A stretch of 64,000 nt of DNA. Origin: Escherichia coli (GTDB lineage Bacteria; Pseudomonadota; Gammaproteobacteria; Enterobacterales; Enterobacteriaceae). Numbering within the stretch: position 1 is the stretch's first letter; every line of letters begins with the position of its first letter. The position numbers were made by a program. Below are positions 40,201 through 43,200 of this stretch, in pieces. The stretch lies in assembly GCF_003790525.1 (NCBI RefSeq), contig NZ_CP033635.1. One strand, 5' to 3'.

Positions 40201-43200
40201 CATTAAGGGAATGATTACCCCGCCGAAATCACAGGCAAAAAACACCATTACAGGCTACCAGGAGCGCATTAATGGCATTAAAGAAATTTTTAGCATGTTC
40301 GGCAACCAGTACGACGGGATCAAAATGTCGTGCCTTGAAGATGCATCCTGTACGCTGGAAATGGCCCGGGAACGTCTGCTTAACGAAATGGGTAAAAACC
40401 ACACACCAACAAATAAAAATATCCCGTCTCATATTTATGCCGGAAACGGGAACATAACAGGCGATGCGATTCGCCAGGGCCTTTATTCTCGTCTTGGGTA
40501 TGAGCGTTCTGAGCGTGGCAATCCTTACGCGATGATGAGCCTTTTTGAAATGGCCCAGGCGTCACTGGTTGATCGCGGTATCAGTGTTGGCGGTTTTTTA
40601 AATCGCTCGCAGGTCGTTAATGCAGCTTTTACACACAGCAGCAGTGATTTTTCTCATATTCTGGCTGGCGGTGCTGAAAAATCAGTGCTGAAAGGCTGGC
40701 AGGACAGCGGTGAAACGTTCCAGAAGTGGACGCGTAGCGGTTCACTTTCAAACTTTCATGAAGCAAAGCGCGTTGGTCTGAATGGATTTTCAAAGCTGGA
40801 TAAAGTGCCGGAAGGCGCCGAATACAAATACATCACCACCAGCGATAAAGGTGTGCCTATTGCGCTGGCAACATACGGGAATATTTTTTCTGTTACCCGC
40901 CAGGCCATTATTAACGATGACCTGACCCAGTTAACTACAATCCCCATGGCGATGGGGCGTGCAGCCGCCAGAACAGTAGGTAATCTGGTGTATCTCCTGT
41001 TAACCGGCAATGGCAAATTCACGGATGGTAAGGCGCTATTCCATGCCGATCATAAAAATCTTATTGCGAAGGATATGGACATGGAGGGGCTTAACGAAGC
41101 CCGTAAGCTGATGCGCCTCCAGGAGGACGCTAACGGCGATTCGCTGAATATTACCCCTGCATTTGTCCTGGTCCCCGCCGCGCTGGAGTCTGCCGCACAT
41201 CGCGCCATTCTGTCATCGTCATCACTCTTTCCGGTTGATAGTGAGGGCACTATCAATCAGAACCCCGGCATCATTAACGTGGTGAAAGATATGGCTGAGG
41301 TTATTGTTGAGCCACGTCTTGATAAGAACAATAACAAAGAGTGGTATGTAGCCGCAGCGAAGGGGATGGACACGATAGAGGTCGCTTATCTTGATGGTAT
41401 TGATACGCCATATCTTGAGGAACAGGAGGGCTTTACTGTTGATGGTGTCGCCTGGAAGGTGCGCATAGATGCAGGTGTTGCAGCTCTCGATTATCGTGGA
41501 CTACTGAAATCGAGTGGAGCATGACAACAAGGGCGGCGATAGCCGCCTTTTTTTACGGGTCCTCCCGGTGGAGTGACCTGCCACGGGGCGGGAGCGTCGC
41601 GGAAAACGGCTGATTTTTGAATTTTCATGGGACACCACCACATCAATTAACATGCTGAAAAGTAAAATAAAAATTGATTTTCACCTGTCCCATTTTACTT
41701 TTTGTGGGACATCTGACCAGTTTTTAACATTATGTTTTTAAAGAGAAAAATGATATTCGAGCTGGAGAACGATGCTGGTAGATAGTTAGTGATGAACAAA
41801 AAACAAGCAAAATCGACACCATAAAAATAAAACACATTGAATATCAATTTGTTGCAGTAGTGGTGATGACGAATAAAATTTCAAAAACTAGCCGTTTTCC
41901 GCGACGCTCCCGCCCCGTGGCAGGGCACCCCACAAGGAGGACCCGCCATCACTATGGAGGACATGACCATGACCGAGACCGAAGCGCTCGGGATAATCCG
42001 CAGTATTACCGGAATCAGCCAGCAGGCTGGCGAACAGGAGGCCACGCAGCCGGACAGCGTGATCGCCGAAAATTACGTGCGTGTTGTTGCTGATGTAATG
42101 CGCCGTGATGGTATTGAGCTTAACGGCGTGGATATGCGCGACATACGAATCAGAGTACTAGAGTTGCTGGCATACCGTCGACGCGTGGCGATGTATCAGG
42201 AGAGCGCGAAAAACACTTATCAGTGGAAGAAGCCGGAACGGTTGCGTACGTAATACGTACGGACATCGAGACAAAGACGGTTTAACCATCCATTAAAAAT
42301 CGACGTGATTTTGTGCTTTCCGGATGACGTGGCCAACGTCATTTTTTAGCGAAAAATTCTGATTAAGGTCATTGGCTTAATGGTCATAATGACCACTCCT
42401 ACAGAACAGGTAAAGCCCACCAGCCTGATAATTGCGCTGGCTGGCAAAGTGCAAAATTGCACGATGGCCTAACCCATTGATTATTTCGAAAACCTGCAAT
42501 GCAGGAAATCGGGGAAGTAAGCCTAAGCTATTGATTCTTTCGGAAACCTCAATTTGAGGAAGTCGGCGCGGTAACTCGCTGATATTCCCGATAACGCAAA
42601 ATTGCGTTGGCTGGTTGGCGAGTTGCAGATCTGCAACTCGACCATGAAACTACGGAAACTACCCGTAGTTTGGGTAGTAAGAGTAACACCCAGATTTTGG
42701 GGCTTACTCGTGATACCCAAATTTGGAGTATCGGTGGCAACCATAACGACTTTCGTTACGGTTGATGCTTTTACCCCATTGGGGGAAAGGTATTACGATA
42801 ATCATAACACCTACCGAACAGGTAAAGCCCACCAGCCTGATTGACATTTAACCGGAAAAAAAGCCAGGTAGCCCCGTTATGTGGATCCCCATATCGACAG
42901 CAACGCCCCCTTAAAATTACCCGCCTTTATATTTCTTGTGCCTATTTGTTCCACGTTGTTTCATACAGTGCGCCGAACGGTGTAGTTAATGGTGTAGTTA
43001 ATTTGCGATTTTTGGCACTTTTGTTTGTGTATATTTTTAATTAAATCAATACATTAACTAATATCGGTGATAAAAGGACATATTTATTCATCTTTCGGCG
43101 CAGAATGCTGGCGACCAAAAATCACCTCCATCCGCGCACCGCCCAGCATGCTCTCTCCGGCGACGATTTTACCCTCATATTGCTCGGTGATTTCGCGGGC

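Follow-up and report, generated by a model that had tools for sequence, protein, structure and literature searches.

Cis-acting sites on a phage satellite for a regulator encoded by its helper are a known principle, since the Cox protein of the helper P2 acts on the satellite P4 (PMC6092414), and the helper-encoded activator of the Gram-negative phage-inducible chromosomal islands (PICIs) had not been identified as of 2018 (PMC6092414). The PICI origin of replication follows pri-rep and is made of initiator-specific iterons flanking an AT-rich stretch (PMC6092414), and in islands of the Rpp type lambda-type cosN sites flank rpp (PMC6739421, PMC9026076). The window analysed here is a stretch of 64,000 nucleotides of Escherichia coli DNA (assembly GCF_003790525.1, contig NZ_CP033635.1), in which an island of 10.8 kb, bounded by a 26-bp direct repeat, is inserted in the chromosome with roxA/pepT on one side and phoQ/phoP/purB on the other. 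The island is a PICI-type phage satellite, and a 750-bp non-coding tail lies between its last gene (end 42253) and attR. That tail contains the interval 42384-42841, ending about 140 bp before attR, which a first-pass annotation had flagged as an array of small hairpins forming either a structured RNA or a protein-binding array. The closest described counterpart is found in a helper gene: Clerget and Boccard (1996, J Bacteriol 178:4077; listed among the references of PMC3430580) reportedly found that the Roi protein of HK022 binds a site inside its own gene adjoining a site for integration host factor (IHF) and that IHF stabilises this binding, and the title of that work states that Roi inhibits lytic growth in IHF mutants.

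Comparison of the tail with phage genomes showed that, by sequence, a composite IHF and dyad site from the Phage_pRha-domain coding region of the roi/rha/ant genes of lambdoid phages has been copied into its repeat units (42467-42608), with separate units carrying the dyads of separate roi/rha alleles. Each unit consists of the IHF consensus WATCAANNNNTTR (YAANNNNTTGATW on the + strand), a fixed spacer of 10-11 nt and a dyad of 12-15 bp (Table 1). Over 48 nt, unit 2 had 93.8% identity (E 1e-10) with roi codons 41-57, on the antisense strand of that gene, and the matching roi genes were those of HK620, H-19B, HK140, Kapi1 and many Stx phages. It was predicted beforehand, and then found, that other dyads match other roi alleles. 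Unit 1, with the dyad CCTGCAATGCAGG, matched the roi genes of CP-1639 (87.8% over 40 nt) and Stx2a_WGPS6 (96% over 27 nt), and the unit with the dyad CCCCCATTGGGGG matched those of VT2-Sakai, HK629 and PA phages (92% over 36 nt). Overall, the matches of units to roi/rha covered 36-48 nt at 88-94% identity. Units of the form CGCAAAA(A/T)TGCG corresponded to a classical rha allele, and the architecture of unit 3 was present, with the near-identical dyad GCGCATTTTTGCG, in classical rha genes.

Roi is a protein with a Phage_pRha domain and a KilAC (ANT) domain, and no solved structure of a relative was found. In the phage genes the dyad is followed by 10 nt and then by AATCAATnnnTTA, at the same place in the Rha domain, and the residues encoded at the site differ (LPQIEV, LPALQV, NPPMVV and RAHFCV). 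The dyad types of the roi alleles were KRHDNVKRTIETL for HK620/HK022, SRPDNVKISIERL for CP-1639 and SRHDKVKQSIERL for VT2-Sakai. Across recombinant phage backgrounds, dyad type co-segregated with the presumed recognition helix of the helix-turn-helix; the phage loci L149 and L109, for example, have both flanks in common and differ in helix and in dyad. From these comparisons the recognition helix and the intragenic operator look like a linked specificity cassette of the roi/rha genes. In the Phage_pRha-domain genes (L095-L212), the IHF consensus was encoded by a conserved K-I-N-x-L-G (AAA ATC AAT nnn TTA GG) in which the leucine codon was constantly TTA.

Units of the same anatomy were found in related satellites, with 98 units in 42 tails, 1-4 per satellite, in one orientation throughout and with neighbouring units often exactly 54 bp apart. 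The two perfect IHF consensus sites of the window tail both fell within the 54-nt units (0.12 expected for the tail). Among 76 dyad-defined units of the related tails, the consensus at the fixed offset was perfect in 54 and had one mismatch in 22, its NNNN positions varying and its consensus positions being kept, and the register between IHF motif and dyad was identical in 60 distinct satellite and phage units. The dyads themselves varied (CCTCAATTTGAGG, CCTGCAATGCAGG, CCCCCATTGGGGG, CAGCCAACGGCTG, TTCGCCAGCGGCGAA and CGCAAAATTGCGC). In 28 distinct units, 91.7% of the dyad cells were paired versus 71.8% in shuffles, and 29 double-sided changes (5/6 pairs) were counted versus 10 expected, neither value being reached in any of 500 shuffles; counts for a G:U versus A:C asymmetry in the stems were sparse. 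This covariation indicates that the dyad is selected as a dyad, and it agrees with the first-pass observation that stem sequences differ with pairing kept. The degenerate tandem units described there were also recovered, as the two 54-nt units of the window, which are 76% identical and were missed by Tandem Repeats Finder because they are too diverged.

No Rha, Roi or Ant protein is encoded by the island, and the cognate proteins must therefore come from helpers. The reading that we favour, to which we give about an even chance, is that the tail is a double-stranded DNA array of predicted sites for IHF and for several specificities of helper Roi/Rha protein. Host IHF would occupy this array jointly with helix-turn-helix proteins of the Roi/Rha type, supplied by whatever helper develops in the cell; the 54-bp spacing (about 5 helical turns) would align the sites along a single face of the DNA, and a nucleoprotein complex would form at the attR-proximal end of the satellite. 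As to the consequence, our first preference would be that the multicopy satellite titrates the Roi/Rha regulator of the helper as a decoy; our second, that the array would be a helper-dependent roadblock or switch on late-operon read-through across attR, or across attP into int in the excised circle; and our third, that the array would serve as a helper-sensing input. A tentative extension, held with somewhat less than even confidence, is that the attR end would hold, in phase, a library of operator mimics, each copied from the autoregulatory IHF and dyad site of a different roi/rha allele, through which one satellite could capture or sense the Roi/Rha of many helpers. Of the two possibilities named in the first-pass annotation, the protein-binding array is the one to which the IHF consensus, the fixed dyad distance and the roi/rha homology point, and the structured RNA in its CsrA-sponge form is not sustained.

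Several points weigh against this reading. Binding is something that we infer, and the identification of the dyad as a Roi operator draws on the single reported study mentioned above and on evidence of the linkage type: helix and dyad are only about 50 nt apart, and their co-segregation could be plain linkage. The IHF consensus of the phage genes also encodes K-I-N-x-L-G, and its presence is no independent proof of IHF binding. The core and the X module of the tail (Table 1), about half of the flagged interval, are without a phage counterpart and are left unexplained by the model. To our knowledge lambda, a known helper of the related island EcCICFT073, has no roi, in which case Roi would be no universal inducer. 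Lastly, all 98 units of the 42 tails are co-directional with the late operon and antisense to roi, a uniform orientation that is predicted by an RNA model and not required by the DNA-site model.

In that RNA model, the main rival, which we regard as unlikely, the tail would be the 3' end of the late operon, and its units, each complementary to the roi/rha mRNA of one helper allele, would lead to degradation of the message or to a block of its translation; together they would form a set of antisense "spacers" for various alleles of a helper regulator. The array region probably does lie in the late-operon 3' tail. Between the 99-aa open reading frame (ORF) of the last gene and the array, no terminator-like site was found, and the first-pass placement of the region beyond the last terminator was not confirmed. 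The + strand of the window was antisense to roi in every match, as was the match of the Y module to the R-ant region described below, and the identity and length of the unit matches would be ample for pairing. An antisense device could, however, hit all alleles through one conserved roi segment (for example the MTSIEIAELVG codons), and an allele-specific site was copied instead. Even in units that otherwise differ from roi the IHF consensus is intact, with drift at its N positions, and a conserved IHF motif is a feature of DNA. Dyads in the satellites can be more symmetric than those of the phages (CCCCCATTGGGGG as against the phage copy CCACCATTGGGGG), which lowers complementarity, and RNA folding of the flagged region, far better than that of shuffles, was as strong on either strand (z of -7.2 for + and -7.7 for -).

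Comparison among islands showed that the tail is a mosaic of shuffled modules that differs from one island to another. The Y module was 97% identical to the distal, attR-adjoining module in strain GF4 (L004). Within it, 42307-42365 was 78-89% similar, in antisense, to a stretch of Stx phages (E 1e-4 to 5e-3) that lies directly 3' of the endolysin gene R and upstream of the late-region ant gene (phage locus L213, 966-1025). Near codon 52 this ant gene (anti-repressor, phrog_63) contains the palindrome AACCGGAAAAAAATTCCGGTT, which is similar to taaccggaaaaaaattccggtagg of related satellite tails; a degenerate copy stands in the window at 42850-42869. The core, a block of about 110 nt, was almost invariant across 40 distinct satellite sequences and folded with z of -6.9 and -7.1 on the two strands. 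It was present in L001, L002, L004-L006, L008 and many IMG/VR satellites and absent from L007 and the L013 type, and no counterpart was found in phage genes, the core being found only in satellites. The GATC at the centre of its palindrome CGAGTTGCAGATCTGCAACTCG is a Dam and BglII site, and the block includes two more hairpins. The X module is the usual distal module of the tails, and the Y module is the alternative, distal in strain GF4. Both occurred together in this island only, with the junction 42429/42430 cutting a dyad in half. On this evidence the flanking 44-nt direct repeats (89% identical) resemble a scar left by mosaic recombination, a by-product with no part in the mechanism, and not a functional boundary. 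The first-pass annotation had reported an array flanked by direct repeats of about 45 bp; the repeats are real and flank the array in this island, and the collinear arrangement was found in none of 5426 genomes.

A shuffled mosaic that differs among islands, an arrangement unique to the window with a junction through a dyad, and units derived from coding sequence are also what would be left by recombination debris, that is, by short fragments of helper roi/rha taken up during co-replication, through illegitimate or short-homology recombination, and later duplicated, with no selected function. This is very unlikely in view of what was retained. The 36-48-nt site alone was kept, the similarity between satellite and phage ending at the site boundaries and never extending into the neighbouring roi codons; at least 5 allele types were preserved in independent events, always with the same orientation and register; the IHF consensus and the dyad symmetry were kept and other positions drifted; and nearly every related satellite retained at least one unit. 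It had been stated at the outset that a decayed duplication of coding sequence would speak against a functional array. This applies in part: the units do derive from roi/rha, and what remains of these genes is a single short site that is multiplied, symmetric and in phase, which is unlike decay.

All of the short palindromes listed in the first-pass annotation were present. In the flagged region, 9 palindromes (stem >=6, loop <=7) were observed, where 300 dinucleotide shuffles gave 0.78 +/- 0.87 (maximum 4). In palindrome density the region ranked first among 278 equal-size windows of the 64 kb. In E. coli, the RIB/RIP elements combine palindromes with an IHF site, and the tail could likewise be a generic hairpin tail of the REP/BIME kind, including the IHF-containing RIB/RIP, serving as a stabiliser of the late mRNA or as an insulator that protects attR and phoQ against read-through, with its similarity to roi a matter of incidental ancestry. 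The very high density of stem-loops, stems that vary with pairing kept, and a location directly 3' of the last gene and ahead of host genes on the opposite strand are in keeping with this explanation, which we nevertheless hold to be quite unlikely. It does not account for the allele-by-allele match of the variable stems to the helper roi/rha dyads, nor for the fixed register between IHF motif and dyad and the 54-bp phasing, and the tail occupies about one locus per genome, always at a satellite end, unlike the dispersed REP elements.

The many small hairpins, some with GGA at stem edges, had also suggested a small RNA that titrates CsrA/RsmA or Hfq, and this is almost certainly not the case. 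GGA was observed 7 times versus 8.4 +/- 2.2 expected and ANGGA once versus 2.3; the GGA triplets lay in stems or flanks and none in loops, which were AAAT, ATT or AAT. A search with Rfam cmscan over 40000-44000 gave no match at E<=1, no promoter-like site was found within the flagged region, and no promoter or terminator consensus was found to bracket it. Terminator-like sites (GC-rich stem and T run) numbered 2 in 1.6 kb versus 2.2 expected, one weak site lay inside the flagged region, and none of the main palindromes qualified; a cluster of intrinsic terminators was thus rejected.

Mechanical ORFs run over the palindromes at 42602-42844 (+ strand, 80 aa) and 42523-42744 (- strand, 73 aa), and in some genomes (L005 and L008) PGAP places a 52-aa "hypothetical protein" here. 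The frames of the 80-aa and 73-aa ORFs are unrelated to the roi homology, the roi-homologous frame is broken by stops, and codon-periodic variation was absent across the core sequences. That absence, together with the palindromic content, suggests that the two ORFs are not genes, and the 52-aa protein is probably spurious. The earlier impression that a convincing protein-coding signal is lacking was therefore upheld.

Parts of the tail were present in about 1,500-1,900 of the 5,426 complete E. coli genomes, at a median of 1 and at most 8 places per genome, which were always satellite ends or roi genes. Tail copies stood at the right end of the satellite, after the 93-aa homologue of the 99-aa gene, and this wide distribution marks the tail as a conserved module of many satellites and not as the accessory cargo for which it had been taken. 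The packaging modules of the tail-bearing satellites were of different kinds (capsid, decoration and Rpp; HK97-type capsid-forming PICI (cf-PICI) with HNH/TerS/TerL; ClpP-capsid fusion with DUF1441), and there were two replication modules (RepA-type and primase-type) and three integration sites (phoQ, tqsA and tRNA-Ile); the tail is therefore not tied to cos, to ori or to one integrase. A lambda-type cos site was rejected for the tail: cosN GGGCGGCGACCT had no match in the island at <=2 mismatches, and the cosN of relatives lie beside rpp. A PICI ori was also rejected, as about 5 kb separate the tail from the gene of the 468-aa helicase/primase and the tail occurs with both RepA-type and primase-type initiators. 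In the Rpp-type relatives L005, L007 and L008, two lambda cosN in opposite orientation flank rpp ("terminase small subunit"); this pair matches the published cos1/cos2 of EcCICFT073, and the 93-aa gene and the tail lie directly beyond cos2.

The proximity of the array to attR, its IHF sites and the co-variation of the distal X/D2 module with the integration site call to mind an accessory arm of attP/attR, in which IHF bends and a dyad-bound directionality factor would shape the intasome for integration or excision. Conservation of the X module extended to islands at phoQ and tqsA and not to L006 at tRNA-Ile, a pattern from which we infer a fit with an integrase-specific attP-arm region. As an account of the array itself, the arm is highly improbable: the units are 370-510 bp from the attR core, far past usual arm lengths, they are common to islands of different integration sites, including L006, and their dyads match helper genes and not the specificity of an island-encoded Xis/AlpA. 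Further perfect IHF consensus sites were noted at 43044-43056 (40 bp right of the attR core, before the phoQ stop) and at 41842-41854 (about 100 bp upstream of the 99-aa ORF).

Table 1. Coordinates of the island, its last gene and the modules, repeat units and palindromes of its non-coding tail (positions in the window)
Feature	Position	Strand	Description
Satellite island	32162-43003		bounded by 26-bp direct repeat
attL	32162-32187		26-bp direct repeat
Island genes			integrase; 468-aa helicase/primase-like protein; single-stranded DNA-binding protein (SSB); PerC-like activator; 638-aa ClpP-protease/major-capsid fusion; 99-aa last gene
Last gene	41954-42253	+	99 aa, phrog_1561 (PHROG match 3e-49)
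Y module	42263-42429		palindromes 42324-42342, 42341-42357 and 42381-42395; ends in 44-nt repeat copy 1 (42386-42429)
Palindrome	42449-42462		GTGCAAAATTGCAC; CGCAAAATTGCG class, without IHF motif at the usual offset
Unit 1	42467-42520	+	IHF consensus TAACCCATTGATT (42470-42482; AATCAATGGGTTA on - strand), 11-nt spacer, dyad CCTGCAATGCAGG
Palindrome	42493-42505		CCTGCAATGCAGG
Unit 2	42521-42574	+	IHF consensus TAAGCTATTGATT (42524-42536), 11-nt spacer, dyad CCTCAATTTGAGG
Palindrome	42547-42559		CCTCAATTTGAGG
Unit 3	42572-42608	+	one-mismatch IHF motif TAACTCGCTGATA (42572-42584), spacer, dyad (AA)CGCAAAATTGCG(TT) (42593-42608)
Palindrome	42593-42608		AACGCAAAATTGCGTT
Core	42612-42735		22-bp perfect palindrome with central GATC (42619-42640), overlapping hairpins (42647-42678), long imperfect inverted repeat (42660-42730)
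Palindrome	42619-42640		CGAGTTGCAGATCTGCAACTCG
Palindrome	42647-42671		AAACTACGG..CCGTAGTTT
Palindrome	42658-42678		ACTACCC..GGGTAGT
Palindrome	42717-42726		CCAAATTTGG
X module	42736-42841		hairpin CAACCATAACGACTTTCGTTACGGTTG (42738-42764), CCCCATTGGGG; ends in 44-nt repeat copy 2 (42798-42841)
Palindrome	42744-42758		TAACGA..TCGTTA
Palindrome	42774-42784		CCCCATTGGGG
attR core	42978-43003		26-bp direct repeat of attL

The protein encoded by the last gene was 77-90% identical to that of the 93-aa last gene of other satellites, and the non-coding tail always stood 3' of this 93/99-aa gene. An AlphaFold2 model of the 99-aa protein was helical and of low confidence (pLDDT 64). No relatives of the 93/99-aa protein were detectable outside these satellites, a search of GTDB representative genomes for relatives of the 93-aa protein gave no confirmed locus, a scan of 1.84 billion proteins yielded no more than 38 close representatives, and the close homologues have no recorded Pfam domain. 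In relatives, the first IHF and dyad unit (of the unit-3 type) overlaps the stop codon of the 93-aa gene, which ends ...CGGCGGTAACTxGxTGATA, with the stop codon inside the first IHF-like motif. In the window the Y module stands in place of that first unit, and the end of the 99-aa ORF (42240-42262) is the palindrome CGTACGTAATACGTACG, with a last residue and stop context unlike all relatives. In relatives (L006), the ClpP-capsid fusion and the 93-aa gene are also separated by a DUF1441/TerS-like gene. The window island has none; its position is taken by a 430-bp non-coding gap (41525-41953), where an AT-rich stretch is flanked by inverted repeats of about 70 bp (~41556-41625 and ~41880-41945) and part of the sequence is inverted relative to L006. 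The window island may be packaging-defective or rearranged.

A conserved module that copies the helper roi/rha site allele by allele provides a concrete contact of satellite with helper that can be put to the test: Roi/Rha and IHF are the candidate partners, the DNA is known to the base, and natural variation among alleles supplies built-in specificity controls. If the extended reading of a library of operator mimics is true, the tail would be a DNA-level device for recognising or decoying helpers with several specificities, of a kind previously undescribed, with a possible bearing on the helper signal for Gram-negative PICIs. On the phage side, a linked recognition helix and intragenic dyad beside an IHF site would explain the old observation that roi/rha do harm without IHF. 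Should the antisense alternative hold instead, the tail would form a Cas-free array of RNA segments directed against helpers, and this too would be new. No published description of the tail, or of a PICI link to Roi/Rha sites, was found in the searchable literature, and we know of no multi-allelic, phased mimic of a helper's intragenic autoregulatory site.

Compared with known systems, the tail shares reiterated small hairpins with sponge RNAs of the CsrB/RsmZ type and differs from them in having no GGA loops, no Rfam match and no defined transcription unit. It shares clusters of small palindromes, an IHF consensus and a location 3' of genes with the REP/BIME RIB/RIP elements; these are dispersed in hundreds of copies per genome, whereas the tail has a median of 1 locus and matches roi/rha and not the REP consensus. 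An IHF site interleaved with sites for a helix-turn-helix protein is also seen in lambda cosB (R3-I1-R2-R1) and PICI cos (PMC9026076), but the island has no cosN and the tail is common to satellites of unrelated packaging systems. With P2 Cox and P4, the tail has in common that a satellite carries cis sites for a regulator that only the helper encodes (PMC6092414). The Cox boxes, however, are located at a promoter (P4 PLL) and are used by a single helper, whereas the tail lies at the 3' end by attR, has several allelic specificities and would mimic an intragenic helper site. The closest likeness in sequence is to the intragenic site of HK022-type roi (and of rha genes with IHF-dependent toxicity), with which the units share the dyad, the 10-nt spacer and WATCAANNNNTTR, at up to 94% identity over 48 nt, and the same allelic dyad types. 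The phage site is single and within coding sequence, is read in the sense direction, and lies inside the gene of the protein that reportedly binds it. The satellite array, in contrast, has 1-4 tandem copies of different alleles, 54 bp apart, in non-coding DNA of an island with no roi/rha gene, and runs antisense with respect to local transcription.

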